Shown one piece after another: positions 1,387 to 52,744 of a stretch of 53,915 nucleotides of DNA. A program made the position numbers and the translations under genes. The DNA comes from a virus (lineage: Duplodnaviria; Caudoviricetes), in the IMG/VR virus record IMGVR_UViG_3300035016_000040; one strand, 5' to 3'. Within the stretch, counting starts at the first letter, position 1, and each line of letters starts with the position of its first letter. The notes under the pieces are model-generated. The model saw nothing but the letters and a program-made list of their open reading frames with translations, was not told the origin of the DNA and ran no database searches.

Positions 1387-1584
1387 GTGCAGTCAAGTCA
1401 TTCGCCACCGGTCGGGAAGGATCCGCCTATCAACACCGAGGCGCAGTGGGCGCACGTCAAGTGCGACCTGTCGCCGCTCGACTACGTGCGGCTGAAGCAG
1501 CTCAAGCGCATGCGCGGGTGTCGCTACCTCACGGACGCGATCCGCCTGGCGATCAACTCGGGGTTGAAAGCCGAGGGGTTATGA
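1387..1584 (+). CDS. Small putative ribbon-helix-helix DNA-binding protein
   Basis: HVKCDLSPLDYVRLKQLKRMRGCRYLTDAIRLAI resembles a strand-helix-helix pattern; TATACT 7 nt upstream of the GTG. Confidence 0.45.
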   Translation: MQSSHSPPVGKDPPINTEAQWAHVKCDLSPLDYVRLKQLKRMRGCRYLTDAIRLAINSGLKAEGL

Positions 1585-1740
1585 GGTTCACAAGCCAGCT
1601 GACGTCGGTCGGATCCTTTGAACCGGGGTCGACACCTAGGGGCGCTATCCCAAAGGTTGCCCCCGCCAGCCGAACTTGTGGTAGACTTCGCCTGGCGAAT
1701 CACGTCGCAAAAGGGGAAACCCAGGTCGATTTACGCTTGA

Positions 1741-1801
1741 GGGCGGATTGTTGGCCGTTTTGCGTCCTGTGGCCCTAGCGGCGGCCTGTGGACATCGCGA
1801 A
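1741..1801 (+). promoter_or_regulatory. Conserved non-coding element upstream of the pilin cassette (copy A)
   Basis: 57/61 nt identical to the reverse complement of 52678..52738; core 1754..1801 is 47/48 identical; contains two CCTGTGG direct repeats 20 nt apart. Confidence 0.75.
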
Positions 1802-1820
1802 TAGTGAAGGGTGGCGGGTT

Positions 1821-2096
1821 ATGGAATGGGATGATGAGGATATGACTTTGCCCCGTGTGGTGAACGCGATTGTGGTTTTCGCTGCCACGATCCTTTTCGG
1901 GGTGATGATCGTCTGGTTTGGCAACGCCACCAACCAGCCAGATCAGCGGCGGTACCTAGGGGTTGCTGCCGTTTGTACCGTCGTGGCGATCGTCGGCGCC
2001 GGTGCGGACTACTACCTGAAGCACCGGAAAGCGGCGACCGAACGGCAGCGGGGATTCCCGATCGTCATCCCGATGGAGAAACACAATGAAACGTAG
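1821..2096 (+). CDS. Small two-TM membrane protein coupled to the prepilin-like gene (start may be 1788 or 1842)
   Basis: Two hydrophobic stretches (VVNAIVVFAATILFGVMIVWFG; YLGVAAVCTVVAIVGAGA); the gene end overlaps the pilin start by 11 nt. Confidence 0.7.
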   Translation: MEWDDEDMTLPRVVNAIVVFAATILFGVMIVWFGNATNQPDQRRYLGVAAVCTVVAIVGAGADYYLKHRKAATERQRGFPIVIPMEKHNET

Positions 2097-3366
2097 CGCC
2101 TTCACCCTTGTCGAGCTGCTGATCTCGGTCGCGATCGCGCTGATTCTGATCGTCGGCATTGCGACCGTGTTCAACCTGACCGGCCAGACGATCGGGGCCG
2201 GCATGGCGCTATCCGCCGTCACGCGCGACCAGCGAGCCGCGCAGACGGTTTTCAGCTCGGACTTTGAAGGGCTCGCCAGCACCAATCCCGGCCTCGTCAT
2301 CTGGAGCGGCACGACGGCTGGGTATCTCGACGCAGCGGCGCGAGATCAGGATCCGACGCGAGATGCAGCCATGACAGGCCGGACGCTCTACCGCACGGAT
2401 CGCCTGGGCATGTTCGTCACCGGCGAATTCCGCCGGCAGAGCGGCAACGATAACTACCTGACGGCTGACGTGACGGCCGAACAAGCGTATGTGTGGTACG
2501 GCCACCTGATGCTTCCGGACAACAGCGGTGCGTTCGTCTACAACAACGATCCGAACGACTGGATCACGATCGGCTCGATCAACCCGAACGCTGGCTCCAC
2601 GTTCGCGACCAACCCAAACAATTACTTCGCGCGACAGTGGACGCTAGGTCGCGTTGCGCTGTTGATGAAGTCGAAGAATGCGAGCACCGGCGAGATTTTG
2701 GACAAGGCGAACACCCCTCAATACTTCATCGACGACGACAACAGCGGCAACGATATGCGACCGTTCATGTACAACTCCCCCGACAACAACACCGCTGCAG
2801 CGGCGGCGGCTCGGGCGCGTGTCCAGCAGTCGCGATATGACCTGGTGGGGTTGAACGGCGATCCGTTCGTCCGCGTGGCGTCTAAGCTGGTGGGCACATG
2901 GTGGGATGAACTCAACTACCCGTTCCAAGCCGATCCGTACCCGTCCCGCCCGCTAACGTCTGCTGGCGCAGCGAAGACGGCCCCGCTATTTCTCCCTGGG
3001 GTGACTGAGTTCCGGGTTGAGTTCGCGGGCGATTATGCGGCACCGGTCGGGATCGACAGGGTAGACGTGGATCCGGACGGCGGAGGCGGGCTGCCTGCCG
3101 TTTCGCAGATTCGTTGGTACGGGCTAGCTCGCGACGTTAACGAGGACGGCGACCTTCTCGATCCCGAAGACGTAACGTGGCCGTACGGTACAGGCACCAC
3201 CAGTGCCGCGCAGAACGTCGTCGGCGGCACGCCCACCGTCTTCGCATGGGGGCCGACAACGACGACTCCCTGGCCGTCGCTGATCCGCATCACCTACACG
3301 ATGCAGGACGCGCAGGGGCGGCTGAACAACCCGCAGCCGGTCGAGATGATCTTCAAGGTTCAGTAG
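2086..3366 (+). CDS. Prepilin-type N-terminal cleavage/methylation protein (GspJ/PilW-like minor pseudopilin)
   Basis: Class III signal MKRSA|FTLVELLISVAIALILIVGIATVF with E5; FSSDFEG helix end; C-terminal WPSLIRITYTMQD as in J/W-type pilins. Confidence 0.85.
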   Translation: MKRSAFTLVELLISVAIALILIVGIATVFNLTGQTIGAGMALSAVTRDQRAAQTVFSSDFEGLASTNPGLVIWSGTTAGYLDAAARDQDPTRDAAMTGRTLYRTDRLGMFVTGEFRRQSGNDNYLTADVTAEQAYVWYGHLMLPDNSGAFVYNNDPNDWITIGSINPNAGSTFATNPNNYFARQWTLGRVALLMKSKNASTGEILDKANTPQYFIDDDNSGNDMRPFMYNSPDNNTAAAAAARARVQQSRYDLVGLNGDPFVRVASKLVGTWWDELNYPFQADPYPSRPLTSAGAAKTAPLFLPGVTEFRVEFAGDYAAPVGIDRVDVDPDGGGGLPAVSQIRWYGLARDVNEDGDLLDPEDVTWPYGTGTTSAAQNVVGGTPTVFAWGPTTTTPWPSLIRITYTMQDAQGRLNNPQPVEMIFKVQ

Positions 3367-3643
3367 ACGGCCATCGCGGAATCGGCAGCGGGCATTGCTC
3401 CGATGCCAGCCTCGTCTTGGCGGCTAGGAAGCAGTTGCAGATGGTGCAGCGGCTCAAGTTGGTCAGTCCCTTCGTGGCGGCGTGCTTCGGATCGTGGTTT
3501 CGAGTGGCGAACTCGCACGCCCGGCACTGGTCGCGCCTGGCCTGCACCACATCGTCGCGAGCCTGATCGACGGCGACGCCCACAGCTTGCAGTCCGGCCT
3601 TGGCCAATCCGACGACGCCCTTCGTGCAATCGGAGCAGTTCAT
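3353..3643 (-). CDS. Small Cys-rich protein at the end of the tail operon
   Basis: MNCSDC...RRDQCRACE...RCTICNCFLAAKTRLASEQCP; ATGA overlap with the upstream gene. Confidence 0.7.
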   Translation of the reverse strand: MNCSDCTKGVVGLAKAGLQAVGVAVDQARDDVVQARRDQCRACEFATRNHDPKHAATKGLTNLSRCTICNCFLAAKTRLASEQCPLPIPRWPSTEP

Positions 3644-4539
3644 ATCCCCACCTCCACGTAAGGCGTCACCGTGGCGGTGCCGCCGGTGGCGATCGTGGTC
3701 ACGGCTTCGAACGGGTCGCCGGTCGGGCACACGTTACTGTTGACGCCCGAGTATGAACCAAGGCAGTCGAAGGACGCCGTTGCAATCATTGCATCAAAAA
3801 GTGACAGGCGCGAGTACCCGGGGACCGGAATGTTGTCGAGCCTCATCGCCAGGCTCCAGAAACCACTGGAAAGGTTGCGGTTCAGTATAACTGTGACAGG
3901 AACCTCAACCTCGGCATCGGTGCATCCTCCGGGGTCTGGCTGTCCGGCATAGACCGTCGTCTGGTGACCGCGCACCAGATCGGTATGGGGATTGGTCCAA
4001 GCGGAGGCATTGAATCGCCGCAGGCAGAACCGGTTGTTGGGATTACCGCTCCACCTCGCGTAGAAGTAATCGCCGAATGACCCGTTGCGCTTAACGCATC
4101 CGCAGTTGTTCACAATTCCCGAGAACTCCACCTCGATAAAGTCTGGGGAGGAACCACAGCCCGTTACGGCGGTGGTCCTCAATGACACCGTGATGGTGCC
4201 GGTGGCGGGGGTCGTAAGCGTGTTGCTGACAGAGTACGTAACGGTGGTTGCGCTCGCGACCGTCCCTGATCCGTTGGTGAAGTTGTACCCGCTGGGGGTC
4301 GCACCGCTTACGGTGAAATTCGGCGGGAATGAAGGGTTGAACAGGTGAGGTTCAGGAAACGTGATCGTGGCAACGGTGCCGGACCGCGTGATCGTCACGC
4401 CCGTCCATGACTTCGGCAGGTTGTTGCACGGTCCGCCACAGCAGCAATCGTCGCCGTTACCATCCGACAGAATCACGTTGCCGCTGTCGTCTAGGATGAC
4501 GTTACCGCTTGCGTCGAGTAGTCGGTCACCATTTGCCAT
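3640..4539 (-). CDS. Putative tail-tip / receptor-binding protein
   Basis: Last large gene of the tail operon; Thr/Gly/Ser-rich beta sequence, CCC motif, atypical codon usage; ATG at 4539 follows the upstream stop. Confidence 0.6.
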   Translation of the reverse strand: MANGDRLLDASGNVILDDSGNVILSDGNGDDCCCGGPCNNLPKSWTGVTITRSGTVATITFPEPHLFNPSFPPNFTVSGATPSGYNFTNGSGTVASATTVTYSVSNTLTTPATGTITVSLRTTAVTGCGSSPDFIEVEFSGIVNNCGCVKRNGSFGDYFYARWSGNPNNRFCLRRFNASAWTNPHTDLVRGHQTTVYAGQPDPGGCTDAEVEVPVTVILNRNLSSGFWSLAMRLDNIPVPGYSRLSLFDAMIATASFDCLGSYSGVNSNVCPTGDPFEAVTTIATGGTATVTPYVEVGI

Positions 4540-4540
4540 A

Positions 4541-5170
4541 TCAGCATCCTCCCGATCCAGGCGTCTCGCCCGCGTCCCAGAGAACCAGCGCCCCCGTCTG
4601 ATTGTAGAACGCCAGGCCGTAGCCCGTGCCGAACGCCATGGCGCCAAGTGGGCGAGGGCGGCCGACGGCGACAGCGGTTCCAATCTCAATGTCCCCGATC
4701 GTGCTGACCGTGTACGTCCAGGATGCCGCGGTTGTCTTTGAACCACCGGCACCACCCGTTTTCGTCACCTTCACCGGGAAGATCTGCCCGGTGCCGGCGA
4801 ACAGATAGACCGGGTCGCCGCTGGCGTTGTAGCCATGCGTGCGTGCACGATAACGCTGCGGCAAGTTGGTGGCGGCGCTATACAGCCCGCTGCTCTGGTT
4901 CTGCTCGCGCGCGTTCGTCGTGCCCGTCACGGCCGGATCCACGTCGGCCCAGGCGTTGGTGACGGGGTTGAAGTAGACCAGCTTCCAGCTGTACCAGCCG
5001 GCCAGCGTACCCGTGCCCTCGGCGGTCAACTGAATCCAGAACTCATCTGACGGCACCGGCCTGCCTGGCGTCTGGCGGGTCGACCTGTAGTCGGGGTGGC
5101 GCTCGTAGTGTCGCGTGGCGGCGACGACGCGCGACGCCCCCGCTCGGTCAAGCCTCAGCTCTTCGGCCAT
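4541..5170 (-). CDS. Minor tail protein (conserved N-terminus, variable C-terminus)
   Basis: N-terminal ~125 aa closely match 49439..50035; tail-operon position. Confidence 0.7.
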   Translation of the reverse strand: MAEELRLDRAGASRVVAATRHYERHPDYRSTRQTPGRPVPSDEFWIQLTAEGTGTLAGWYSWKLVYFNPVTNAWADVDPAVTGTTNAREQNQSSGLYSAATNLPQRYRARTHGYNASGDPVYLFAGTGQIFPVKVTKTGGAGGSKTTAASWTYTVSTIGDIEIGTAVAVGRPRPLGAMAFGTGYGLAFYNQTGALVLWDAGETPGSGGC

Positions 5171-5185: not shown

Positions 5186-6088
5186 TTATGCGAGCGGCAA
5201 GCTTGTGTGCGCTACCGAAGCGTAGGGCTTGAACGTCAGCTCTGCCGGCGTGTCCGAAATGTTGGTTTTCTTCGCGCCCGCTCCGTCCAACGGCCACGCG
5301 GTCTCGACCGGCGTCGGATCCTTGTCGCCCTTCACGATCGTCTTCAGCTTGCCGGTGGTGCCGTCCTTCTCATTGAAGCCGCGATCCTCGACGACGTGGT
5401 CCCAGCTTGAGCGGAACTGATAGAGGACCTTGGACTGTCGGTAGGTCACCGCCACGCCGTTCACCGTCTCGGTCTGCACGCCGCCGACGGTCCAGCTCTT
5501 CAGCTTGGCCTTGCCCGCGGGCACGGGCACGCCGTCGACCGTGATGCTGCCCGCGTTGACCGTGTCCTTCAGGTCCAGAGCCGCCACGACGCTGTACGAC
5601 CCGGCACCGCTGGTCGGAATGTTCTTGGTGATCGTGGCGGTCAGACTGCCGGTCTCGCGTTCCAGGAACTGCTCGAATCGCTCCTTTGCACTGTTCACCA
5701 CGGGCTTGGGCGTGCTGCTCTTGTCGATGAAATACGGCTCGGTTGAGTCGTCGAAATCCCACGTCACGTCGGCCGTCCGGTTGAGCGGGTTGGGCTCGAC
5801 CGTCACGACGTTGATCTTGTCGCTGTACCCGACCTCGACCGTGAAGACCTTGCGCTTGCCGTCCTTCTCGGTCGACGCGCTGATGGAGGTGACCTTGCGC
5901 GTCGCGTCGTGCGGGTGGCCGGCCCCCCGGGCGGGGATCGACGCAGCGCCCACGGTAGCGGTCTCGGCCGCCACGGTCGTCGTCGGCGTGTCGGAGATCG
6001 CGACGAAAACCCGCTTGGCGGTCTTCTCGTCGTTCGTCTGCTCGCTCTCCGACAGGTGGCCCTGCTCGCTGACCTGTATCCATGCCAT
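5186..6088 (-). CDS. Minor tail protein immediately after tape measure (distal tail / hub candidate)
   Basis: Synteny; strong similarity to 48521..49420 over the full length. Confidence 0.75.
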   Translation of the reverse strand: MAWIQVSEQGHLSESEQTNDEKTAKRVFVAISDTPTTTVAAETATVGAASIPARGAGHPHDATRKVTSISASTEKDGKRKVFTVEVGYSDKINVVTVEPNPLNRTADVTWDFDDSTEPYFIDKSSTPKPVVNSAKERFEQFLERETGSLTATITKNIPTSGAGSYSVVAALDLKDTVNAGSITVDGVPVPAGKAKLKSWTVGGVQTETVNGVAVTYRQSKVLYQFRSSWDHVVEDRGFNEKDGTTGKLKTIVKGDKDPTPVETAWPLDGAGAKKTNISDTPAELTFKPYASVAHTSLPLA

Positions 6089-6102: not shown

Positions 6103-8868
6103 TTAAAACGTGATGAGCGACACCGTGTTCTTGTGCACCGCGTCGTCGATGCTCTTCAGGTGGGTAGTCTGCTTCGTCATCTCGACCAGCTGCTTCTGAA
6201 TCAGCTCGCTGGCCGTCTCGCGCATCCCGCTACTGGTCGATACCGATAGCGGCGCCGGCTGCGACAGCCCCGCCAGCGTTCCAGACTGCGGGATCCGCGG
6301 ACCGCCGCCGGCGATACTCGCCGCGTCCGGAACCATCGTCGACAGCACCGGGGTGATGAACCGCATCGCCTGGGCCTCTGCGCTGCCCGCCATGGTGAGG
6401 CTCGCTCGCTTCAGTTCGGGCGGCTGCAGTTTCGCGGCCGCAGCGGCCGTGGCCTTGTCGAAGACGGCCTGGGTGATCAGCCCCTGGTCGAGCATCGTCT
6501 GCAGGTTCGCCAGCTCGTCGTTGTACTTCTCCAGCGGCGACTTGACCGATTCGGTGATGCTCCGCGCGTCGGCGGCGAGCTTGTCGGTCATCGTCTTGCG
6601 CGACTCGTCGCGCACCGCGGCGAATTGCTCGGCCGTCAGCTTGCCGGTCGCCCAGAGTTGCTGCAGGGCCTCCATCTGGGCCGCGTACGTCTGGAGCGGG
6701 TTGCCGGCGTCGATGTCCTTCAACGACTGCAGCTGCGTCTTGAGGTTCAGCAGACCCGTCGCCTCCGCCAGGTCGCCCTGCTCGGCGCCCGCGGCCCGCA
6801 GCTCCGCCAGCTCCTTCTGGACGTCCGACAGCCCGAACGACGCGACGTCGGCCTTCAGCTTCTCCATCGCGTCGCGGACCTTCTGATTCGGCCCCTTCAC
6901 CGCCTGCTCGACGGCCATCGCGGTCTGCTGGGTCTTCGTGCCGACGTCTGCGGCCGCGGCGGCGGCCGTCGCGGCGCTGGTTCGGACGCCGTCGAAGAAC
7001 TGGCCGACCTTCGATGCGCTGTCGGCCGTCATGAACTGGTTGAACGACGCGCCCGCGTCGTCCTTCATTCGCCTGGCGTCGGCGATAAGGCCATCGGCGA
7101 GATCTCCGGTGAACGTGGTCCACTGCACGCTGACGCCGGGCATGAGGTTGAGCAGGCTCACCAGGCCAGCCCCCACCAGGTCGACCGCCTTGACGACCCC
7201 GAACACGGCGAACGTCGCGCCGGCCTGCAGCATCTTGAAGCCCGCAACGAGCAGGTTGCTGTAGTCGATCGCGTAGGCGAAGCCCTTGGCGATCATTTCC
7301 GCGCCGCTGAGCACCAGGTTGCCCGCGTTCTGGCCGACGCTGCCGCTGGCGGCGAGCCCGCCGATGAACGACTCGAGGATCGGCATCGCGGCGTCCGCCA
7401 GCACGCTCAACGAGCCGGTGACGCCGGCGATTGCCCCGCGCAGGTCCAGTTTCTCGGTGATCGTCTCGCCGATCTTTGTGAGGCTCATCGTCACCGTGTC
7501 CTGCAGGGTGCTGTAAAGCCCCGCCATGGTCAGGCTCTGCGCCCCCATCATGTTGTGGAACTTCCCGCCCTCGCCCGTCAGGCTGATCATCGCCTGCTGC
7601 AGCTGGGGAAAGCCGATCTTCCCCTGCTCGACCATCTTCCGGACCTCGCCGTCGGTAACGCCGAACTGCTTGGCAAATTCCTGAATGACGGGGATGCCGC
7701 GGCCGGTGAGCTGGTTGACGTCCTCCATGTACAGCCGGCCCTGCACGCGGGCCTTGCCGTAGATCTCCGACAGCTCGCCAAGCGGGATGTTCAGGCCGGC
7801 CGACACGTCGCCCAGCGCCCGCATCGTCGGGATGATCTGGTCTTGCGCCACGCCGAACGACAGCAGCGCCTTGGCGGCACCGACCAGCTCGGGCGTCTGG
7901 AACGGTGTGGCGGCGGCGAACGCATTGATCTCGCCCTGCAGCTGCCTCGCCTTGTCGGCCGAGCCCAGCATGGTCGTAAACGCGACGCGCGACGTCTCGG
8001 CTTCGGCCGCCAGCTTGATCGAGTAGGCGGCAAGCCCGCCGACGCCGGCGATCGCCGCACCGGCACCGACGGCCGCGACCCGGGCCATCCCACCACCGAT
8101 CCGCCCCATCGTGCCCATGACCGACGAGGCGACGCCCTTGGCGTGGCTGGCCAGGCCGCTCAGGAGCGCACGGGCCTTCGTGACGGCGACGGCAACCCCG
8201 TAATGCGTTGCCCGCAGCGCTACGATGACGCCCTTGCCGGCCAGACGGCTCAGCGGCGCCAGCGCCTGCAACGCGCCGGCGGCGGGGAGTTTGGCGGCAT
8301 TCACCGCTGCGATCACGATGCGCACGGCGCGGTACTGCTTCAGCGCGTCGATGCGAGCCCGAGCGGCGGCGACCTGGGCGCTCAGACGGTCGCCCGCCAG
8401 CCACACGCGGAACTGGATCGGCTCAGCCATGCGCATGAGCCGGGCCCGCTGCGTCCGCATGAACGCCTGCGCCTCAGCGGCCTTGCCGGCGACAATCGAC
8501 GCAGCGACCTGCACGCGGCTTGCGGCGACGATCCCCTGCAGGATCGGACGTGCCCGCAGCCAGGCCTCCGCCAGCTTCTCGCGCCCGATCTCCATGCCGA
8601 TCTGTACGTCGCGGTTTCGCGCGAACGTACGCATGGCGGACTGCGCGAACGCCATCGTGGTCTGCAGGGAGGCGATCGTGTCGGCGCCGGCCAGCTTCAG
8701 CTCACCAGCGCTCTTGCTCATCCTGGAGTAGGCGGCCGTGGAATTCGTCAGCCGGTTGAACGCGGCCGACGCGATCGACACCGACCCGGCCGCCGCGGCG
8801 AACGTCGCGGCCAGGCCGTTGGCGGTGCCGGTGATGCCCACCGACATGGTGCTGATGCGTTTAGCCAT
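6103..8868 (-). CDS. Tail tape measure protein
   Basis: 921 aa, Ala-rich; tape-measure domain (FTTMLGSADKA...FAAATPF...LGDVSAG...GKARVQGRLYMEDVNQL). Confidence 0.92.
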   Translation of the reverse strand: MAKRISTMSVGITGTANGLAATFAAAAGSVSIASAAFNRLTNSTAAYSRMSKSAGELKLAGADTIASLQTTMAFAQSAMRTFARNRDVQIGMEIGREKLAEAWLRARPILQGIVAASRVQVAASIVAGKAAEAQAFMRTQRARLMRMAEPIQFRVWLAGDRLSAQVAAARARIDALKQYRAVRIVIAAVNAAKLPAAGALQALAPLSRLAGKGVIVALRATHYGVAVAVTKARALLSGLASHAKGVASSVMGTMGRIGGGMARVAAVGAGAAIAGVGGLAAYSIKLAAEAETSRVAFTTMLGSADKARQLQGEINAFAAATPFQTPELVGAAKALLSFGVAQDQIIPTMRALGDVSAGLNIPLGELSEIYGKARVQGRLYMEDVNQLTGRGIPVIQEFAKQFGVTDGEVRKMVEQGKIGFPQLQQAMISLTGEGGKFHNMMGAQSLTMAGLYSTLQDTVTMSLTKIGETITEKLDLRGAIAGVTGSLSVLADAAMPILESFIGGLAASGSVGQNAGNLVLSGAEMIAKGFAYAIDYSNLLVAGFKMLQAGATFAVFGVVKAVDLVGAGLVSLLNLMPGVSVQWTTFTGDLADGLIADARRMKDDAGASFNQFMTADSASKVGQFFDGVRTSAATAAAAAADVGTKTQQTAMAVEQAVKGPNQKVRDAMEKLKADVASFGLSDVQKELAELRAAGAEQGDLAEATGLLNLKTQLQSLKDIDAGNPLQTYAAQMEALQQLWATGKLTAEQFAAVRDESRKTMTDKLAADARSITESVKSPLEKYNDELANLQTMLDQGLITQAVFDKATAAAAAKLQPPELKRASLTMAGSAEAQAMRFITPVLSTMVPDAASIAGGGPRIPQSGTLAGLSQPAPLSVSTSSGMRETASELIQKQLVEMTKQTTHLKSIDDAVHKNTVSLITF

Positions 8869-21045: not shown

Positions 21046-21960
21046 TTATCTCGCGGCGTGCTGGGCGGCTTTTCGCGCCGCTAGAAACGGGACGATCATG
21101 GGCCACTCGCAAAGCTGATAACCGCCCTCCTCGCCCATGCGGCGCAGCAGCTTACCGCCCATGTCGGCGGCGAGGGCTTCAGAGCTGAGGTTTGTGATCA
21201 TCAGCGTCGCCAGTTCATTGCCGTAGCGATGGTCCAGCAGATCGCCGAACACGGCATCCTCGCGCGGCGTTGCACTTCGATCTTGGACCTCGTCTATCAC
21301 CAGCAGGTGAGCGCGCTCGAACTTCCGACGCACCGCCATCTTTCGATCCCAATCGGCGGTGGTGAGCTCGTCGATCATCCGCCGGGCCGTGGTGTAGAAA
21401 GCGTGGCGACCGCGAACCGTGTAAGCGCGGATCAACCCGCTGGCCAGGGCTGTTTTGCCGATACCCCGCGACCCGCCGATCGCGAGGAAGAACGGCGAAC
21501 CGGCAATGTCCGACAGCTTGCGGGCGGCGGCGAGGTAGTCGGGCGGCAGATCCCGGTCGAGCTGTTCCAGGTCGATCGACAAGTATCGCTCGGGCACGCC
21601 CCGCGCCAGCATCGACGCGTTGATGGCCCTCCCTCTCTCCGCGGCGATCTTTTCGTCGTTCTCTGTGGGTGGCGCTGAGCCCAGCACGCTCCGAAGAAAT
21701 GCTTCGTTCATCGTCGGGCGCAGCGGGCGGGGTGCGGTCCGCGCAGCCGGTTCATCGGCCGCCGCCGGCGGGGCATTGGCGAGCCAATCGATCTTGCTGC
21801 GCAGCGTGTCGAGCGTCTCACCCGGCTTGAGCTGCAGCAAGGTCCGCAGCGCGTCCGACCTCATCTCCGCCGAGCTTAGTGACGGGGAGGGCTGGGGTTT
21901 GGTCTTTGTGGAAGCCTCGGCGCGCCTCTTCCTCTTTGCGGGTTTCTTTGAACCGTCCAT
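21046..21960 (-). CDS. DnaC/IstB-like AAA+ helicase loader
   Basis: GVPERY, GGSRGIGKT, LLVIDEV, LDHRY...TLMITNL. Confidence 0.88.
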   Translation of the reverse strand: MDGSKKPAKRKRRAEASTKTKPQPSPSLSSAEMRSDALRTLLQLKPGETLDTLRSKIDWLANAPPAAADEPAARTAPRPLRPTMNEAFLRSVLGSAPPTENDEKIAAERGRAINASMLARGVPERYLSIDLEQLDRDLPPDYLAAARKLSDIAGSPFFLAIGGSRGIGKTALASGLIRAYTVRGRHAFYTTARRMIDELTTADWDRKMAVRRKFERAHLLVIDEVQDRSATPREDAVFGDLLDHRYGNELATLMITNLSSEALAADMGGKLLRRMGEEGGYQLCEWPMIVPFLAARKAAQHAAR

Positions 21961-22744
21961 TGTTGCTCCCGTGATTTGTTCGCGGCTCGAAAATGCCTTG
22001 CCACGTATTCGCGATGCTGGTCTCGATGGCGTCGACCGCCCGTTGCGGCCCCCATCCGGCCAGCTTCTTTAGCTGCTTCTCGGCTGACATTGGCCCGAGC
22101 GGTTTTTTCATCTGCTGGCGGTACTCAATCCACTCGCCCCACGCTTGGCGAAACTCCGACGTGTCGAGCACGGCCGGAATCGGTGCGTTGTCGCATGATG
22201 GTTTTGGTCGCAGCGCGCGGCTGTTGTTGTTCTCTTTGTTGTTCTTTGAGTTGTTCTTAGTTGTTCGGGGGACGGTGCGCGGCCCGGTTGAGGGTCGCTG
22301 AGCGGCCCGGTTGCAGGGTCGCCCACCGTCCCGGTTGAGGGTCGCTGAGCGGCCCGGTTGGCCGCCCCCGTTTTGCTCGGCGTCCGGGACGTTCACCGTC
22401 CCGGTTGAACCGGGCCGCTCACCGTCCCGGTTGGGAACCGACAACCGGCGCAGTACGACGTTGCGACCGTGGCTATCCACCCGCCGCACGAGGATGCCTT
22501 TATCCTCCAGACGCTGCACGGCCTTTCGCGTCCGGTTTAGGTTCTTGCAGCCGACGTCGTCGGCGATCGACTCGATGCTTGGATAAGCGTCGCCAGTGAG
22601 GTAGTCGGATCGCGACACGAACACCAGCAGGACTTTGGATTCCAGCTCGGTCATTGCGTGCAGGTGCGTTCCGTCGATGATCGCCCGCAGACGGTCGAAC
22701 GTGTTGACTTCGATAGTCCGAAACAGCGGCGGTACCTCGTTCAC
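21818..22744 (-). CDS. Phage replication initiator (N-terminal HTH, internal iterons)
   Basis: AYPSIESIADDVGC wHTH; C-terminal AWGEWIEYR...KKPL...SIANTWQGIF; upstream of DnaC-like gene. Confidence 0.85.
   Translation of the reverse strand: MNEVPPLFRTIEVNTFDRLRAIIDGTHLHAMTELESKVLLVFVSRSDYLTGDAYPSIESIADDVGCKNLNRTRKAVQRLEDKGILVRRVDSHGRNVVLRRLSVPNRDGERPGSTGTVNVPDAEQNGGGQPGRSATLNRDGGRPCNRAAQRPSTGPRTVPRTTKNNSKNNKENNNSRALRPKPSCDNAPIPAVLDTSEFRQAWGEWIEYRQQMKKPLGPMSAEKQLKKLAGWGPQRAVDAIETSIANTWQGIFEPRTNHGSNNGRFKETRKEEEARRGFHKDQTPALPVTKLGGDEVGRAADLAAAQAG
22222..22433. repeat. Putative replication origin: six CCCGGTTG iterons plus an adjacent TTGTT-rich tract
   Basis: CCCGGTTG at 22283, 22306, 22330, 22353, 22400 and 22426, several followed by AGGGTCGC; lambda-O-like layout. 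Confidence 0.75.
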
Positions 22745-25976: not shown

Positions 25977-26145
25977 CGCCCTGGACACCGGTCTTTGACC
26001 GTCGCCGGGCTGAGGGTTAGAACGGGGTTATTCTCCAATTGGAGAACAACCCGTGGAAGTAGGTGGTTCTGGCCGACACCGAAGCCCGCGAGAAAGCCTG
26101 AAAAAGCAGGCGTTTTCCGCTAGGTCGTGATTCCCCCGTGACGCA

Positions 26146-26186
26146 TGACACGCTGGGGGTCACAGGTTCGAGCCCTGTACCGCCCA
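26146..26186 (+). other. att core: 3' half of tRNA-Val(GAC)
   Basis: TGACAC GCTGG GGGTC ACAGG TTCGAGC CCTGT ACCGCCC A gives anticodon loop to discriminator with an intact T-arm; no 5' acceptor strand or D-arm upstream; 118 bp before an integrase. Confidence 0.85.
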
Positions 26187-26304
26187 TGACCATAACTCAC
26201 GCCGAATGCTGAATTAGCATACCTGCCAATGGTTGGCAGTGCGGCCGAAAACCCCTGACTAAAAACGGAAGATTCCGTTTTTCGGGGCCATCGGAGCACT
26301 CGCC

Positions 26305-27609
26305 ATGCCGAAGCTATCCCCCGGAAAAGTCCCGAAGTACCGACTGCATAAGCAATCGGGCCGCGGCATCGTCACGATCCACGGCAAAGACAAGCTCCTG
26401 CCCGGCAAGTACGGGTCACCGGAGAGCCGCAGGGAGTGGGCGCGCCTCACCACCGAATGGCTTGCCAGAGAGGGAATGCCGCCCGCCCCGGAAAACGGAA
26501 GAACGGAATCGGAACCCCTGACCGTCGCCCGCCTGGTGGTGCAATTCTGGCGACACGCCAAAACCTACTACCGCGGCACGAACGGCGGGATCAGCCACGA
26601 GGCATATCATTACCGCGACGCCCTGCGCCCGGTTGTGCGGTTGTACGGGGCTACGCCTGCCAACAATTTCCAAGGGCCAGCGCTGGAGGCTGTGCAACGC
26701 GAGATGATCCGGCTCGGTTGGTGCCGAAACTACGTCAACCGCCAAGTCAGCCGGGTGCGGCACGTCTTCACATGGGCGCTGGCCAAAGGGGTAGTAAACG
26801 CCGACGTAGTGGTCGCACTGCGGGCGGTCACCGGACTGAAGAAGGGCCGCAGCGGAGCGCGTGAGTCGGGTAAGGTGAAACCGGTGGCCGATGCCCATAT
26901 CGCGGCCGTGCTGTCTCACCTGTCGCCAACGGTTCGCGCGATGGTGGAGTTGCAGTCCATCACCGGCATGAGGCCCGGCGAGCTGTGCGACTTGCGCGGG
27001 GTGGATCTGGACATGAGCCGCACGCCTTGGACCTACCGCCCCAGCACCCATAAGACCGCGTATATGGATAAAGACCGGAGCATCGACCTAGGCCCGCGTG
27101 CCCGGGCGATAATCGAGCCGTTCCTACGGGCTGACGTGAATGCCCACATCTTCAACCCTGCCGACGCTGCTGCGGAAGGCCGGCGACGCCGCGGTGAGAC
27201 GCGCAAGACGCCAGCAAGCTGCGGGAACGCCCCCGGCACCAACCGCAAGCGCCGCCCAAAACGACGGCCCGGTCATCGGTTCGACGTCCATGCCTACCGC
27301 CGGGCCATCGCCCGCGCCTGTGAGACTGCTTTCCCCTTACCGTCGACCCTGGGGCCGCGCTCTGGTGAAAGTCGCCTAGCATGGCGAGAACGGCTAACGC
27401 CAGCTGAGCAGGCCGCGGTGAAGGCGTGGCGCAGGGAGCATCATTTCCACCCGCACCGGTTGCGACATTCGGCAGCGACCCGCTGGCGAGCCGATCATGG
27501 GCCGGATGCCGCGCTCGTGCTGCTGGGTGATTCAAGCACGAGGATGATTGACGTTTATGCAGAGAAAGATCGGCGGCTGTCGTCGTCGATCATGGAAAAG
27601 ATCGGTTAG
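26305..27609 (+). CDS. int: Tyrosine recombinase / phage integrase
   Basis: GMRPGE, HKT, HRLRH, LGD (usually LGH), VYAE; N-terminal PKYRLHKQSG. Confidence 0.95.
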   Translation: MPKLSPGKVPKYRLHKQSGRGIVTIHGKDKLLPGKYGSPESRREWARLTTEWLAREGMPPAPENGRTESEPLTVARLVVQFWRHAKTYYRGTNGGISHEAYHYRDALRPVVRLYGATPANNFQGPALEAVQREMIRLGWCRNYVNRQVSRVRHVFTWALAKGVVNADVVVALRAVTGLKKGRSGARESGKVKPVADAHIAAVLSHLSPTVRAMVELQSITGMRPGELCDLRGVDLDMSRTPWTYRPSTHKTAYMDKDRSIDLGPRARAIIEPFLRADVNAHIFNPADAAAEGRRRRGETRKTPASCGNAPGTNRKRRPKRRPGHRFDVHAYRRAIARACETAFPLPSTLGPRSGESRLAWRERLTPAEQAAVKAWRREHHFHPHRLRHSAATRWRADHGPDAALVLLGDSSTRMIDVYAEKDRRLSSSIMEKIG

Positions 27610-31231: not shown

Positions 31232-31379
31232 AAATCGGGCCGCCCGCGGCGCCGGAACCGCCACATTCACGCCCGCTTTCACCAAAAACCCCTGCTTTTC
31301 GGCCAAAAAGAGCCGGCGCCTGCCCTACCGACCGGTTCCGCAACCCATCTGCGGGCTGTCTGGTGCCGAGTGCATCGGG

Positions 31380-31434
31380 GAAGCAACCGGGAAGCGATGG
31401 GAAAGCACCTGAGAAGCAACCGAGAAGCACCCAC
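31380..31434. repeat. Five 11-bp tandem repeats
   Basis: GAAGCAACCGG GAAGCGATGGG AAAGCACCTGA GAAGCAACCGA GAAGCACCCAC. Confidence 0.7.
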
Positions 31435-31450
31435 CACACAGGAGCGACGA

Positions 31451-32767
31451 ATGGGTAACAACGGTCCTAATGTCAGAGAGACGAATCGAAAGTGGCTCAC
31501 GCTGCCCGCGCGCATCGGTGCCCGCGATGCGGAAGAGATCGGGGCGAACCTTGCCACCATGGCCGACCCCGAGTGCCGCACACTCTACTCCGAGAGCGAC
31601 CTGCTGCGGATCGAGGACGAGCTGCCAGAGCTACAGGACCAGGTGCGATACGCCAGGATCATCCATCACGCGCGGGGCGTGAAGCCCGAGGCGCGACATT
31701 ATCGCCGGGCCTGCACCTGCACCGATGCGATTCAGGCAGACTACGAGCCGTCGCACGGACCTTACCCGCTGATCATCCCGCCGATGGCGCACGTCGAATG
31801 CGACGCGCACGGCCAGCCCTACTCGATCAATGGGATGCACGTCACCCAGCGGATCCACACGCCGCCGGCGGCGCTGGCCGATTGGGACCGGCGATACAAC
31901 GAACTGGCCAAGGCCCGGAAGTCGACGCCACCGCGAGACGAGTATGAGTTCGTGCCGATCGTGCTGACCGACTACATCGACGAGCTGCCGGTGCACAGCG
32001 ACCCCGAACCGCGGCCGGCGCGTGGCGTGGAGTGGCGCACGCCGTACGCTGCCACGCTGCCCCCGTCGCTCCGCAACATCCACCTGCGGTACGAGCCGAC
32101 GTTCGCCGGAATGACGGGCCAGCCGTTGCCGCAACCCGGCCGGCTGCGCATCTTCGACACCTACCGCGCCCAGTGGGAACGCGAGTGCGAACGCTTGGGA
32201 GTGGACGTCACGCCCTATTGGTTCATCAAGGGACGCTGGCTGTTCAGTCTCGATACGACGCCAAGCGCCGTCTTCAATCGTCGTGGTCTCCGTCGTCAGC
32301 GCCGCCCACGGGGGCAGGCGATCCCGGCGAGCTGGTCGAGTTGGGAACCACCGCGCAGAGATCGCCCCGAATACCCGCACGGGCGAATGGACCTCAACGG
32401 CCTCTGGCGAATCGACCGTAGGAAGGTCGCCTCCATTTTCCTACGCATCACGCGACCGCAGCACGAGTGCGCGACGCTCTACTTCCACGAGGGCTACACG
32501 ATCGCCGAGGTGGCGCGTGCCAGGAACTGCGCGGTCAGCACCGTTCACGAACTGATCGAGCGAGTCCGAGAGGAATTCCGCAGGGAGGAACTGCCGGACC
32601 CGAAGCCCAACTCGCTGTCCCCCACCGAATCGGGCTGGGAATCCGGTTACGTGCTGGTGAGTGCTCGCACCGCCTACGAGGATGAGGTGCGCCGCGGGTT
32701 CAAGCCGCCCCGCAAAGGTGCTGACGTGAATCCGTTCGCGCCCCGCGACAAAAATAAAATTGCGTAA
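31451..32767 (+). CDS. Large protein with a C-terminal sigma-70 region-4-like HTH
   Basis: ITRPQHECATLYFHEGYTIAEVARARNCAVSTVHELIERV; GGAG RBS at 31441. Confidence 0.7.
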   Translation: MGNNGPNVRETNRKWLTLPARIGARDAEEIGANLATMADPECRTLYSESDLLRIEDELPELQDQVRYARIIHHARGVKPEARHYRRACTCTDAIQADYEPSHGPYPLIIPPMAHVECDAHGQPYSINGMHVTQRIHTPPAALADWDRRYNELAKARKSTPPRDEYEFVPIVLTDYIDELPVHSDPEPRPARGVEWRTPYAATLPPSLRNIHLRYEPTFAGMTGQPLPQPGRLRIFDTYRAQWERECERLGVDVTPYWFIKGRWLFSLDTTPSAVFNRRGLRRQRRPRGQAIPASWSSWEPPRRDRPEYPHGRMDLNGLWRIDRRKVASIFLRITRPQHECATLYFHEGYTIAEVARARNCAVSTVHELIERVREEFRREELPDPKPNSLSPTESGWESGYVLVSARTAYEDEVRRGFKPPRKGADVNPFAPRDKNKIA

Positions 32768-49438: not shown

Positions 49439-50035
49439 ATGGCCGAGAGACTTTCATTTTCACGGGATGGCGCGTCGCGCGTCGTCAGCGCCACCCAGCA
49501 CTACGAGCGCCACCCGGACTATCAGGCGACCCGGCAACAGCCGCCCCGTCGCAACACCAGCAACGACGAGTTCTGGATTCAGTTGACCGCCGAGGGCACG
49601 AGTGCGCTGGTCGGGTGGTACAGCTGGAAGCTCGTTTACTTCAACCCGGTCACCAACGCATGGGCCGACGTGTCGCCAGCCGTCACTGGCACGACGAACG
49701 CGCGCGAGCAGAACTTGACGACGGGGCTATACAGCGCCAGCGCCCCGAAGCGATACCGCGCGCGGATGAACGGGTACAACGGCAGCGGTGCGCCGGTCTA
49801 TGTGTTCTTCGGGGGAGGTGCTAGTACCCCCTTGGCCGCCCACAATCAGGGCGTCGTCGTCGCGGCGGCACCGACGTTCATCAACGCGATCAATGGCATC
49901 ACATTCGCCGTAAATGGTACGGGCGTCGATCTGGACAACGGCATTCCTGCGGGCACTGGTCTGGGGAAGGTGCTTACGCTGATAACCGAAGACGGTAGCG
50001 TGAAGGATTGGGAGTATCCGCGGAGCATCCCATGA
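49439..50035 (+). CDS. Minor tail protein (conserved N-terminus, variable C-terminus)
   Basis: Homolog of 4541..5170 up to VYVFFG. Confidence 0.7.
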   Translation: MAERLSFSRDGASRVVSATQHYERHPDYQATRQQPPRRNTSNDEFWIQLTAEGTSALVGWYSWKLVYFNPVTNAWADVSPAVTGTTNAREQNLTTGLYSASAPKRYRARMNGYNGSGAPVYVFFGGGASTPLAAHNQGVVVAAAPTFINAINGITFAVNGTGVDLDNGIPAGTGLGKVLTLITEDGSVKDWEYPRSIP

Positions 50036-51570
50036 GCAATCTCTATTCGATCGCAGTCATGGGGCCGATTTGGGAGCGGGTGCGGCAAAGGGAGCGAGAG
50101 GGGTTCGGCTCCTTCAATCAGGGCACGATCACCGTTCCGGAACTTGGTGCGTGTTTGGCTTACGGGAGATCCCATGAGCCGAGGTTTTCGACTGACTGCT
50201 TTTCGATTCGGGCATTGCAAGATTGGCTAGAGGGCGCTTGCATAGCCTTTGCGCCCGCAGACATTGACCCTCCGACGAACGACTTTGAAAATTACACACT
50301 CGCGTCATGGCGGGCCGCAGCAGGGATTCATCCTGGCGGGTTCCGGAGGAAAGCACCGCGTAGCTTCGGGGTCATCGCAGGCGATTTCACCACGACCACA
50401 GACGCCTATGGTAACTCTGTTAGCGAGGGAGCAATTGGTTATGGGCTACGCGAAATCACGTCCTTCTCTAGCCCCGGAACCGCTGGCGACCATGCATTTT
50501 TCGGAACGCCTGGCAACGTGCTTCGATGCGTAACGAGCGGATCGTGGACGACGGCCACTACCGGCTACTCCGAAGTGCAGACCATCCGCATTCTGGGTGG
50601 CGTTCCTAGCAGCGGCACGTTCACCCTAACCTTCGCCGGCTCGACCACCACCGCGTTGAATTACAACGCAACTGCGTCCCAAGTGGGATCTGCCTTGGCG
50701 ACAGTACTTACCCCGCTGGGCCTATCGGCTTCCGTCACGGGGTCGGCGTTGCCTTCGGGCACCATCACGGTAACCTTTTCCGCATCGCGACCCCTACCCA
50801 AGATGACGGTCGCCAGTTCGAGCATTAACGCCGGCACGGTCACGGTTGCCCGTACCGTCCATGGACACGGCCGCATGGCCGACTGCGGCGGCAAGTACCG
50901 ATACGAAAGCGGCGTCTGGGTTCCGCATCGGGCGACCTCCACAACGCCCGCCGGAATTGACGTGCTCGACTCAGCCGAAGGCACGCTGCCGTACGGTGTT
51001 CATCAACCGATGGACTATCTCTTTGATGGGCTTCGGGACGAGATTGAAGCGGGCTTGGCGAAGTTGACTCGGACGATTAGAAGAAACTCAGGCTTTGCGA
51101 CCGTTGTCGGGCCGAGATGGAACACAAAGAACAATCTCGGCCTTGAAGGATCCCTGTCGTCCCAAGAAGCAGCCGATGCAAGCTGGTCATTCAGCCGGAA
51201 TCAGACACTTCTCCAAGCTATTTCTAATAACGTCTCCAGAGGGTCGAGTGCCGACAATTTGCTCTTTAGCGCCAGCCGCTGGCAACCTTTGGCCTACAGA
51301 ATCCCCGCATCTGTGGCCACGACCCGAACCGTGAACTTCTATTTCAACGTAGAAGCTGATGTATTTGAGCCGATGGGGGATAATGTTGTATTGGGGCTGA
51401 ACGTCTTGACGGGCGGCGGAACCACGGCGGCTTTAGATTTGGCAACAACCTACGGCGACATCAGTTCAACGCCGACCTGGCCACCGACCCCCACCACGAA
51501 TCACACAAATCGCATCGCAGGCTACAGTCTCTTTGATATAAACGTCGTCACCGATTGGGATTTCACATGA
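50032..51570 (+). CDS. Putative tail-tip / receptor-binding protein
   Basis: Last gene of the tail operon, lower GC; EVQTIRI...GTFTLTF.G.TT..LNYNA module; no visible similarity to 3640..4539. Confidence 0.6.
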   Translation: MSNLYSIAVMGPIWERVRQREREGFGSFNQGTITVPELGACLAYGRSHEPRFSTDCFSIRALQDWLEGACIAFAPADIDPPTNDFENYTLASWRAAAGIHPGGFRRKAPRSFGVIAGDFTTTTDAYGNSVSEGAIGYGLREITSFSSPGTAGDHAFFGTPGNVLRCVTSGSWTTATTGYSEVQTIRILGGVPSSGTFTLTFAGSTTTALNYNATASQVGSALATVLTPLGLSASVTGSALPSGTITVTFSASRPLPKMTVASSSINAGTVTVARTVHGHGRMADCGGKYRYESGVWVPHRATSTTPAGIDVLDSAEGTLPYGVHQPMDYLFDGLRDEIEAGLAKLTRTIRRNSGFATVVGPRWNTKNNLGLEGSLSSQEAADASWSFSRNQTLLQAISNNVSRGSSADNLLFSASRWQPLAYRIPASVATTRTVNFYFNVEADVFEPMGDNVVLGLNVLTGGGTTAALDLATTYGDISSTPTWPPTPTTNHTNRIAGYSLFDINVVTDWDFT

Positions 51571-52464
51571 TTAAGGCGCGACCGCCCCGAAGTTCGTGAT
51601 ATCGTCATCGGTGCCGTACTTCCGATCCTTGCCGGCGGCGATCAGGATGTAGGTATCTTTGCTGCGCGGGGTGCCGATGGCATTGCTCCCGCCGCTCAGG
51701 GTCGCATTCTTGAAGTACGGCAGGATATCCACGTCGCCTTTCATCGGCTTATCGCCAATCAGCCCCCAATCCTGCAAGCCGCCCGTCGTCGCTGCGTTGA
51801 AGTAGGGCGCGAGGTAGGCGACCTCGTACTGATAGTTTCGCGCCGCGCCGTTCTCATCCTGACCAGCACGGGTAACGATTCCCGATGCGCCGCTACGAGC
51901 ACGCAGGTAGAGCACGGGCAACGGCTCGCCACCGAAGCCATCTAAAAATTCGGGAATGATGGTGTCAGCCGCGCCGAACGCGACGTAGGGCTTGGCACCC
52001 AGCCGGGCGTCGCTCGCTTCGATGTACGCCGGGAACTGCTTCGGCGCGGTACCAGGATTAAGCGATGCCGGACCGCGGCCCACGTAAGCCGGTTCGTAGG
52101 TGAAGGTGTCGGGGGTCGTGTCGCGGTTCAGGTTCAGTCCGCCCGTCAACGAAAGAACAAGGCTTTCAGACATCGTGATAAGCTGGCCCTGCGTCGGGAG
52201 GCCCGCCAGCGGAACGTTCGTTGCCGGCGGGGTAAGGTAGTGCTGGGTGCCAATACTGTCGTTGGGGAACACACCCGGGTAGGCGCGGAAGTCGGCGTGG
52301 TAACGCTCGATCCCGCTCACCAGCGTCGAAATGTTCTGCTGGCTGTTGGCGACGTTGGCCGACGTGCGGATCTTAGACACCGTCGGCACGAGTATGCCGA
52401 TCAGGACGGCAATGATGCCGATGACCACGAGCAACTCGACCAAGCTAAAGGCGCTACGCTTCAT
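51571..52464 (-). CDS. Prepilin-type N-terminal cleavage/methylation protein (GspG-like pseudopilin)
   Basis: MKRSA|FSLVELLVVIGIIAVLIGILVPTV; GIERYHADFRAYP; C-terminal AGKDRKYGTDDDITNF as in GspG-type proteins. Confidence 0.88.
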   Translation of the reverse strand: MKRSAFSLVELLVVIGIIAVLIGILVPTVSKIRTSANVANSQQNISTLVSGIERYHADFRAYPGVFPNDSIGTQHYLTPPATNVPLAGLPTQGQLITMSESLVLSLTGGLNLNRDTTPDTFTYEPAYVGRGPASLNPGTAPKQFPAYIEASDARLGAKPYVAFGAADTIIPEFLDGFGGEPLPVLYLRARSGASGIVTRAGQDENGAARNYQYEVAYLAPYFNAATTGGLQDWGLIGDKPMKGDVDILPYFKNATLSGGSNAIGTPRSKDTYILIAAGKDRKYGTDDDITNFGAVAP

Positions 52465-52675: not shown

Positions 52676-52677
52676 TC

Positions 52678-52738: not shown

Positions 52739-52744
52739 CACCGC

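Follow-up and report, generated by a model that had tools for sequence, protein, structure and literature searches.

Prophage cassettes pairing a prepilin gene with a promoter-like box of a host gspF-pilin operon: a candidate subunit-replacement system in a planctomycete

Introduction

What use would two prophages, integrated side by side in one bacterial chromosome, have for genes that encode subunits of a type IV filament? The question is raised by a stretch of viral DNA of 53,915 nucleotides (nt) from IMG/VR (record IMGVR_UViG_3300035016_000040; the whole stretch is called the window below), in which two prophages, A and B, each carry a cassette made up of a conserved noncoding element, a small gene for a protein with two transmembrane segments (two-TM protein; tmA and tmB), and a gene for a prepilin (pilA and pilB). 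Through a computational analysis of the window and of the host genome, we found that pilA and pilB are paralogues of two different pilins encoded by a single host operon, that the element contains a promoter-like box which also occurs at that operon throughout the host's family, and that the same genome has a third cassette, within the unrelated prophage C. Tentatively, and with a likelihood that we would put somewhat short of even, we propose that each cassette is a self-contained moron, wired to a host pilus promoter-like box, which supplies a variant filament subunit and thereby excludes rival phages.

The phage biology of Planctomycetota is almost unknown, as is the role of the hugely expanded prepilin families of these bacteria. 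The general mechanism of prophage subunit replacement has already been published. The Pseudomonas precedent invoked by the first-pass annotation of the window, a model's reading of its letters, is real: according to a recent report (Sztanko et al., Cell Rep 2026; PMC12952977), the P-FimU protein of F10-like prophages of Pseudomonas aeruginosa enters the host pilus and blocks tip-binding phages. The same report describes three types of Xylella prophage with PilA-like genes whose identity to the host's PilA is ca. 50% (PMC12952977). In Natrinema, the pilins PilA1 and PilA2 of the SNJ2 provirus are reported to be assembled by the host machinery (PMC12426801).

Results and Discussion

Organization and recurrence of the cassettes

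Cassette A lies on the + strand and runs from a conserved region at 1711-1806 through tmA (1821-2096; 91 amino acids [aa]) to pilA (2086-3366; 426 aa). Cassette B lies on the − strand, with its conserved region at 52768-52673, tmB at 52675-52454 (73 aa if the ATG at 52675 is used, the start codon being uncertain among 52675, 52660 and 52645), and pilB at 52464-51571 (297 aa). The first-pass annotation had proposed a three-part cassette in both prophages, with a conserved frame and swapped cargo, and on both counts it was correct: every part was found in place, the two pilins resemble each other only within residues 1-22, and the two-TM proteins could not be aligned with each other. In both cassettes, the stop of the two-TM gene overlaps the start of the pilin gene by 11 nt.

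These 11 nt, AATGAARCGTAR, are identical in a third cassette, C (C60:31877-30269), on another contig of the same genome, in which the arrangement recurs. Whole-genome tblastn revealed cassette C through its pilA paralogue (72%), which is directly preceded by a homologue of tmA (36%; C60:31826-30269), and the DNA upstream of it retains TGGCCCTAGCGGCG-N4-GTGGACATTGCGAAGAATG from the element. The region of prophage C corresponds to an IMG/VR viral contig, with 100% identity in the compared 13,305 nt, and RecT-, ASCH- and DUF2303-type genes lie near the cassette. Prophages A and C have in common only the pilin and the two-TM gene; since the remaining genes of C are unrelated to those of A, the cassette is common to unrelated phages. 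A modular frame shared in this way is a clear case of moron exchange.

A fourth cassette probably exists in another sample, as indicated by two proteins from a collection of 5.8 billion. The nearest outside relative of pilA in that collection is P0004 (48% identical), which has a short, phage-type leader (MKRNA/F, the slash marking the cleavage point), and the single further relative of tmA is P0084 (88 aa, 59% identical to tmA, ending in ..PNET). The two proteins, each a singleton, come from one metagenome contig of 11,403 nt. Searches of our collections of metagenome contigs (metagenome_contigs) and genome contigs (genome_contigs) did not recover P0004, and this fourth case stands at the protein level.

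The two-TM proteins each show two hydrophobic segments in hydropathy plots and match no family in Pfam, NCBIfam or PHROGs, their sole relatives being tmC, the homologue in cassette C, and P0084. tmA and tmC are 38% identical, with a ratio of nonsynonymous to synonymous substitution rates (dN/dS) of 0.35 and, to judge by these rates, the two-TM open reading frames (ORFs) are real genes under purifying selection. The type of two-TM protein tracks the type of pilin: tmA and tmC accompany GspJ-like pilins, and tmB accompanies a GspG-like pilin (see below). A complex prediction for tmA with pilA returned a score of 0.00, which makes no call either way.

The cassettes occupy a characteristic position, between the last tail gene and an integrase or helix-turn-helix (HTH) gene, and the same unit occurs in the unrelated phages A and C, as fits a moron placed between conserved modules and dispensable for core phage functions. 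Cassettes A and B each follow the last ORF of the tail module and are convergent with it. In A, this ORF (3640-4755, −) lies downstream of the tape-measure gene (6103-8868) and converges with pilA; in B, it encodes 520 aa (50008-51570, +), has weak PHROG matches to tail proteins, and likewise lies downstream of a tape-measure gene. The convergence noted in the first-pass annotation is thus borne out, and its label of "tail-tip" genes rests on position only. By position, too, the product of 3640-4755 is a candidate receptor-binding protein. The last tail ORFs of A and B are unrelated (E 0.2), and that of A is also unrelated to that of C; the gene adjoining the last tail ORF is 72% identical between A and B. 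In B, the stop codon of the tail ORF abuts that of pilB with zero spacer (51568-51573) and no terminator, which means that the transcripts of pilB and of the convergent tail ORF must overlap.

On the other side of cassette B, directly upstream of it and on the same strand, lies a gene for an XRE-type HTH protein of 135 aa (52745-53152, −; Pfam HTH_31 and HTH_3; PHROG transcriptional regulator). In DNA alignment with this gene, a decayed 3′ remnant of an HTH gene is recognizable upstream of cassette A (1618-1740, +; ending ..KGKPRSIYA* compared with ..KGKPASV* in B). This remnant suggests that recombination at the element gave A a new integrase-proximal region.

Host origin and type of the phage pilins

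As the first-pass annotation had noted, both pilins begin with a class III prepilin signal (MKRSA/FTLVELL in pilA and MKRSA/FSLVELL in pilB), and the Pfam N_methyl domain (PF07963) scores above its cut-off in each. The phage signal peptides have F at +1 and E at +5, and alanine at −1, as in the phage leader, is found in 41 of the 96 host prepilin motifs (the other 55 have glycine). The host genome encodes an A24 prepilin peptidase, with which, by its sequence, the phage signal appears compatible.

The closest cellular counterparts of the two pilins lie in one host operon. On contig C44, a gene for GspF is followed by seven prepilin genes and then by a gene whose product exceeds 1,145 aa; the pilB paralogue is pilin 1 of this series, and the pilA paralogue is pilin 7. 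Across the whole genome, the paralogues of pilA located by tblastn were confined to C60 (cassette C) and C44; for pilB, C44 alone has a full-length one. pilA is 64.6% identical to host pilin 7 by BLAST (72% in the MAFFT alignment) and 74% identical to the pilin of prophage C, while pilB is 50.6% identical to host pilin 1 by BLAST (57% by MAFFT) and aligns over its full length, at 30-40% identity, with the first pilin of 18 related operons. The phage pilin genes are of host origin. In a quick maximum-likelihood tree of 55 proteins, the kind of comparison with host pilins that the first-pass annotation had suggested, the A and C copies form a pair (SH-aLRT 99) inside the clade of the host copy and P0004 (97), which itself lies in a six-row clade (100). 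The copies differ in their surroundings: host pilin 7 is preceded by a PilV-like pilin (a weak match) and followed by the >1,145-aa protein, and the phage copy has neither neighbor; the place of first pilin after gspF is held by the host paralogue of pilB and by the orthologues of that host gene, and not by the phage copy.

The operon is a fixture of the host's family, which we place in Phycisphaerae by the names on protein-search matches. An orthologue of gspF is present in 138 of 140 other genomes of the family, and the operon layout recurs in the 20 loci compared. (The tallies over 140 genomes include one, G061, that is flagged as unpublished; no result depends on G061 alone.) pilA-like genes are found in 52 of the 140 genomes, at no more than 47% identity and mostly in single copy, with two matches in four genomes. 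pilB-like genes (E ≤ 1e-40) are found in 17 of the 140, one in each, and only the present genome has two; in G093 and G050, they adjoin gspF by their coordinates. The second pilA-like copies (G008, G009, G050 and G051) were considered as prophage cassettes and rejected, as none resembles one: those of G050 and G051 lie in chromosomal four-gene sets without the box described below, and those of G008 and G009 lie on short contigs. The four-gene sets (loci L081, G050:C14, and L082, G051:C9) encode GspH-like, PilV-like and GspJ-like pilins and a protein of ca. 1,200 aa, and, while lacking the TGGACA box, they mirror the last four genes of the main operon. As for the host genome at large, it contains 96 prepilin-type N-terminal motifs, 13 hits to the T2SSE ATPase and 4-5 hits to secretins.

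The predicted folds agree with the paralogy, clearly for pilA and more tentatively for pilB. An AlphaFold2 model of pilA (pLDDT 88.2) has its best structural matches in EpsJ (Z 8.8), TTHA1219 of Thermus (8.8), XcpW (8.7) and GspJ (8.3), with the next row at 4.3; the entries include 2ret_B (Z 8.8, root mean square deviation [rmsd] 4.6, 140 residues aligned), 3nje_A (8.7, rmsd 2.9, 136 aligned) and 3ci0_J (8.3, rmsd 3.4, 134 aligned). Foldseek against the PDB returned nothing for pilA at E ≤ 0.001. The cut-off of the curated GspJ model was not reached, and the only NCBIfam matches were a generic N-terminal domain and TIGR02599 (22 bits, the cut-off being 256.5). For the model of pilB (pLDDT 75.2), EpsG (Z 6.1) and PulG (Z 5.5) lead, both below 8, and nearly all other rows are pilins; the NCBIfam GspG model, TIGR01710, matches residues 5-64 only, with 35.9 bits against a cut-off of 88.85. 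Neither Pfam nor NCBIfam reveals an adhesin or enzyme domain in the pilins. Paralogy and folds taken together indicate that prophages A and C carry a tip-type (GspJ-like minor pseudopilin) subunit, and prophage B a shaft-type (GspG-like major pseudopilin) subunit, of one host machine.

Selection on the phage pilins

The phage pilins are under purifying selection, with a dN/dS of 0.24 for pilA against host pilin 7, 0.20 for pilA against the C pilin, and 0.30 for pilB against host pilin 1. With dS at about 1 or higher in all of the pairs, tmA and tmC included, ratios of 0.20-0.35 imply that these genes have been kept over a long time. The constraint is unevenly spread along pilA. Residues 1-320 are mostly 66-90% identical to the host copy per 30-column window, with a dN/dS of 0.15; from ca. 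330 to 400, identity falls to 3-40% with a 45-aa indel, the dN/dS over residues 321-396 being 0.62, and near the C terminus identity returns to ca. 86%. The divergent block is common to phages A and C (83-88% identity) and is not that of the host copy, and the low-confidence segments of the pilA model fall within it. A conserved core with a single divergent, phage-specific block fits a working subunit with a changed surface. The three J-type genes are also mosaic, in that the closest pair changes by segment, and the 3′ ends of the prophage C pilin gene and the host copy share 77 nt at 91% identity.

The conserved noncoding element

Upstream of the two-TM genes of A and B lies the element (1711-1806, +, in A; 52673-52768, −, in B), which is nearly identical in the two prophages, as had been claimed: 96 nt align at 81% identity, and a 48-nt core (1754-1801 in A; 52725-52678 in B) matches at 47 of 48 positions. 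In the comparison of A with B, the core is the only 48-nt window with at most two mismatches on any seeded diagonal. The 31-nt exact run within the element ranks third among all exact matches between the prophages, and both longer ones lie in coding genes. We take the element to be noncoding because its reading frames relative to the downstream ORFs differ between A and B.

Its two halves differ in their distribution. The 5′ half contains a box, TGGCCCTAGCGGCG (1770-1783, +, in A; 52709-52696 in B), in which all 14 bases are identical in A, B and C; the box was not found at either of the host sites described below (P1 and P2), so that it is phage specific, and the 5′ half as a whole has no host counterpart. 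The 3′ half reads GTGGACATCGCGAATAGT in A, ..AAGAAT in B and GTGGACATTGCGAAGAAT in C, and contains what we call the promoter-like box, i.e., TGGACA, 5 nt, and a −10-like hexamer (GTGGACATCGCG-AATAGT at 1788-1805, +, in A; TGGACA-N5-AAGAAT at 52691-52674 in B).

Several other identities for the element were rejected. An RNA stem does not fit, since the hairpin of A and B (GTCC..GGCC / GGCC..GGAC) is not retained in C; a search of Rfam gave one match only, outside the element (window 1547-1639) and with an E of 0.75, well below the gathering score. An origin as a phage attachment site (attP) was likewise discarded, as the true attachment (att) repeat is the 3′ end of a tRNA gene and the element is intact in each prophage. 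Sigma-54 and extracytoplasmic function (ECF) promoters, compared by eye, do not fit. In B, a weak hairpin with a T-run, located after the upstream HTH gene, overlaps the start of the element.

A promoter-like box shared with the host operon

The promoter-like box is common to the phages and to the very operon from which the pilins derive. The 19 bases GTGGACATCGCGAATAGTG (1788-1806 in A) are identical at host C44:52918, in the gap between pilins 3 and 4 (site P2), and GTGGACATCGCGTACAAT lies 63 nt upstream of host gspF (site P1); the host boxes are at L003 6890-6907 and 10919-10937. In the whole genome, the pattern TGGACA-N5-[TA]A.A[AG]T has six matches, compared with one for the reversed control; three of the six lie in cassettes A, B and C, and a further two are gspF P1 and the internal P2.

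The box is also specific to this operon across the family (loci L031-L080). Upstream of gspF orthologues, it is present at 22 of 29 loci under a strict definition and at 27 of 29 under a loose one, and the reversed control, run on the gspF loci, gave 0 of 29. Upstream of an internal pilin, it is present in 10 of 20 operons (strict) or 15 of 20 (loose, by regular expression), plus 2 by eye. In these G+C-rich genomes, the hexamer reads TAYAAT or AAYAAT and lies 45-75 nt before start codons that have a Shine-Dalgarno sequence; nothing is conserved farther upstream, and there is no conserved −35. Given that the box is held at two fixed places of the operon in many genera without such prophages, a host function such as transcription is indicated. 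We infer from these distributions that the box is a promoter or a regulator site specific to the gspF-pilin operon, and a dedicated factor may bind TGGACA-N5-TAnAAT. Whereas the N5 spacer differs from genus to genus, host P1 and P2 and cassettes A and B all have TCGCG; this common spacer argues for descent from the present host lineage rather than for convergence.

A candidate mechanism of phage exclusion

According to the explanation that we tentatively favor, the prophage unit would be transcribed whenever the host expresses its filament genes, and the host prepilin peptidase would cleave the short MKRSA/F leader. The phage subunit would then replace its host counterpart within the host filament and alter the exposed surface. 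Competing phages that adsorb to the filament would be shut out, which would amount to superinfection exclusion by subunit replacement, as for P-FimU. Four considerations lead us to prefer exclusion: the precedents of P-FimU in Pseudomonas and of PilA-like genes in Xylella prophages, the single phage-specific block in an otherwise conserved pilA, the position of the unit next to a hypervariable last tail gene, and the fact that two coresident prophages target different subunits of one machine.

If this explanation is correct, a defense by subunit replacement, so far demonstrated in Pseudomonas only, would extend to the Planctomycetes-Verrucomicrobia-Chlamydiae (PVC) group and to the GspJ- and GspG-like subunits of one machine, and would operate from prophages in the same cell. 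It would also single out which of the host's type IV filament systems is the likely phage receptor. Furthermore, it would provide a short, testable regulatory box for a family-wide pilin operon, seemingly taken up by phages, and with it a handle on promoters that are poorly defined in these bacteria.

A number of observations weigh against this explanation. First, no ATPase or secretin gene was found in the 19-kb stretch of C44 around the operon, the 13 T2SSE and 4-5 secretin hits lying elsewhere; a Gsp-like system without a local ATPase or secretin may form the periplasmic pseudopilus of a type II secretion system (T2SS), beyond the reach of phages outside the cell. Second, the type of pilin does not covary with the adjacent tail gene, as A and C have the same pilin type and unrelated last tail ORFs. 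Third, searches beyond this genome did not recover the element. A 32-base pattern of it (at most 2 mismatches) occurs in 0 of the 140 other genomes of the family, the exact 27-base core occurs nowhere in genome_contigs or in our viral contig collection (viral_contigs), and a 19-base core pattern has a single match in metagenome_contigs (L102), which we rejected as a chance match, with no pilin or two-TM gene nearby. The identity of 47 of 48 positions between A and B could, moreover, be due in part to gene conversion, with both prophages in the same chromosome. Fourth, consensus scans revealed no sigma-70-type promoter at the cassettes and no terminator-like site after pilA or pilB, the halves of the box are only 5 nt apart, and the first possible start codon of tmB (ATG) shares bases with the −10-like hexamer. 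With no sigma-70 match, no conserved −35 and a spacing of 5 nt, the word promoter is used here provisionally.

Alternative explanations

Among the alternatives, the one that survives best is that remodeling of the filament serves the lysogen or the phage in some way other than defense, e.g., through altered motility, biofilm formation, attachment to algal surfaces or choice of T2SS substrates; this would be lysogenic conversion of the kind seen with the SNJ2 pilins. We consider it unlikely, if a contender to be taken seriously. The host system is Gsp-like, and long purifying selection would suit any useful function. Nonetheless, a remodeling role does not readily explain why the divergence sits in one block that is common to the phage copies and absent from the host copy, and the pilins lack the adhesin or enzyme domains that were sought. 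A position beside a hypervariable last tail gene is, for its part, typical of genes for receptor-directed exclusion.

A more speculative possibility, distinctly unlikely in its full form, extends the exclusion model into a portable subunit-swap cassette that is exchanged among the phages of Phycisphaerae. The 5′ element and the 11-nt junction would be its fixed parts, between which any filament subunit could be placed together with a matching two-TM partner. Coresident prophages would mask the shaft (B) and the tip (A and C) of the filament, and a factor that reads TGGACA-N5-TAnAAT would keep the cassettes in step with the host operon.

That the phage subunit, perhaps aided by the two-TM protein, is a dominant-negative poison which blocks or shortens filament assembly seems to us improbable. 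GspJ-type subunits act at the priming step, in the GspK-I-J tip complex, and a misfit GspJ-type copy could stall this step. Such an effect was raised, in the P-FimU paper, for truncated PilA-like proteins of phages (PMC12952977), and small prophage-encoded inhibitors of pilus assembly, such as Zip and PlzR, are known. The present pilins, however, are full length and well conserved in the N-terminal helix and over most of the globular core (the region with a dN/dS of 0.15), so that they look like working subunits rather than decoys.

It is also possible, if quite improbable, that the element is mainly a recombination frame, in which the 5′ element, the signal-peptide junction and the near-identical 3′ end of the pilin gene serve to swap or capture pilin cargo, the pilins themselves perhaps being passengers. 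Much of what is described above would follow from this: the mosaic J-type pilins, the 77 nt at 91% identity that link the C pilin to the host copy, the 19 bases identical between phage A and the host, the HTH remnant in A, and the unrelated cargo within one frame in A and B. A passenger, however, would not hold a dN/dS of 0.2-0.3 at a dS of about 1, and a frame for recombination would not account for a box fixed at two places of the operon in genera without such prophages. The two roles are not mutually exclusive, and recombination and regulation can coexist in the same element. Finally, the notion that the cassettes are inert relics, i.e., host pilin genes captured by imprecise excision or recombination and no longer used, is scarcely credible in view of the intact, full-length ORFs in three prophages, the purifying selection on the pilin and two-TM genes, and the conservation of the 11-nt overlap and of the noncoding element.

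Relation to known systems

The exclusion model has its closest parallel in P-FimU. As that report describes it (PMC12952977), P-FimU, like pilA, is a prophage-encoded homologue of a minor, tip-associated subunit of a type IV filament; its gene lies in or beside the tail module, is highly diverse and is next to a variable tail protein, and its proposed action is the replacement of the host subunit. The differences are several. P-FimU is FimU/GspH-like and ca. 28% identical to host FimU, whereas pilA is GspJ-like and 65-72% identical to its host copy; the P-FimU gene is flanked by those for the tail tube and chaperone, all on one strand, whereas pilA follows the last tail gene on the opposite strand; and, as far as that text goes, only the cassettes described here have a box of their own that matches the host operon and an overlapping upstream two-TM gene. 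The function of P-FimU has been demonstrated there, whereas that of the present cassettes is proposed.

The PilA-like genes of Xylella prophages, as portrayed in the same text (PMC12952977), are comparable to pilB in that they encode homologues of a major subunit at a similar identity to the host protein (ca. 50%, compared with 50.6-57% for pilB), and they occur in unrelated types of prophage, as the cassette does in A and C. They belong to another host phylum, that text describes neither a regulatory element nor a coupled membrane protein, and their function is likewise inferred there. The pilins of SNJ2, too, are type IV pilins encoded by a provirus; they differ in being archaeal and in forming dominant filaments of their own, which aid biofilm formation and serve as the receptor for another virus, the opposite of exclusion (PMC12426801).

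Compared with the T2SS proteins GspJ (EpsJ, XcpW) and GspG (EpsG, PulG), pilA shares the fold of GspJ (Z 8.3-8.8) and pilB probably that of GspG (Z 5.5-6.1); both have the class III signal with Glu5, and their host paralogues lie in an operon headed by gspF. They are unlike these proteins in size (426 and 297 aa, about twice the canonical length) and in scoring below the NCBIfam equivalog cut-offs, and the host operon differs in its seven pilins and in the large protein (>1,145 aa) encoded downstream. The cassettes also resemble the llp gene of T5 and the cor gene of lambdoid phages in being accessory units beside distal tail genes and, presumably, in being transcribed apart from the late operon. 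Llp and Cor are lipoproteins that block an outer-membrane receptor; here, by contrast, the unit encodes a homologue of a structural subunit and has a promoter-like box that matches the target's own operon.

Full-text literature searches, which largely leave subscription journals outside, turned up neither pilins in planctomycete prophages, in keeping with the novelty that had been suspected, nor phage-encoded pseudopilins. Judged against the accessible portions of the papers cited above, what is new here is the phylum, the types of subunit, the box that matches the target operon, and the coupling of a two-TM gene to the pilin gene in a portable frame.

Prophage context and other features of the window

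That A and B are prophages, as first proposed, is confirmed by the att repeats that flank them and by PHROG and Pfam matches to terminase, portal, head and tape-measure proteins in both. An exact repeat of 44-46 nt, the 3′ end of tRNA-Val(GAC), occurs at window positions −160, 26144 and 55392 and marks the att sites; with three copies at tRNA-Val, the window represents two prophages inserted in tandem at one tRNA gene. The tRNA gene itself lies just left of the window, with attL (L029 9809-9882), the middle copy (26144-26187, +) forms the A/B junction, and prophage B extends ca. 1.5 kb beyond the end of the window. The integrases at the left ends of A (1-1320, +; a tyrosine recombinase, Pfam PF00589, E 2.9e-15, which adjoins attL and tRNA-Val) and B (26305-27609) are 41% identical. 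The two prophages are related and diverged, and, apart from the integrase, A is inverted relative to B. When the viral and genome collections were searched with a conserved tail protein (5186-6088), no related prophage came to light.

Several minor features complete the picture. Between the integrase and cassette A lies a small ORF of 65 aa (1387-1584, +) without a family match in Pfam or PHROGs. A Cys-rich ORF of 125 aa (3353-3730, −), whose status as a gene is uncertain, overlaps the interval that separates pilA from the last tail ORF in prophage A. PHROGs weakly links the ORF at 31370-32767 of prophage B to an RNA polymerase sigma factor (E 4e-5). Lastly, prophage A contains an array of 23-24-nt repeats (GGGTCGC...CCCGGTTGA) at 22269-22454, near a gene for a DnaC-like helicase loader (21046-21960), which is iteron- or operator-like in appearance.

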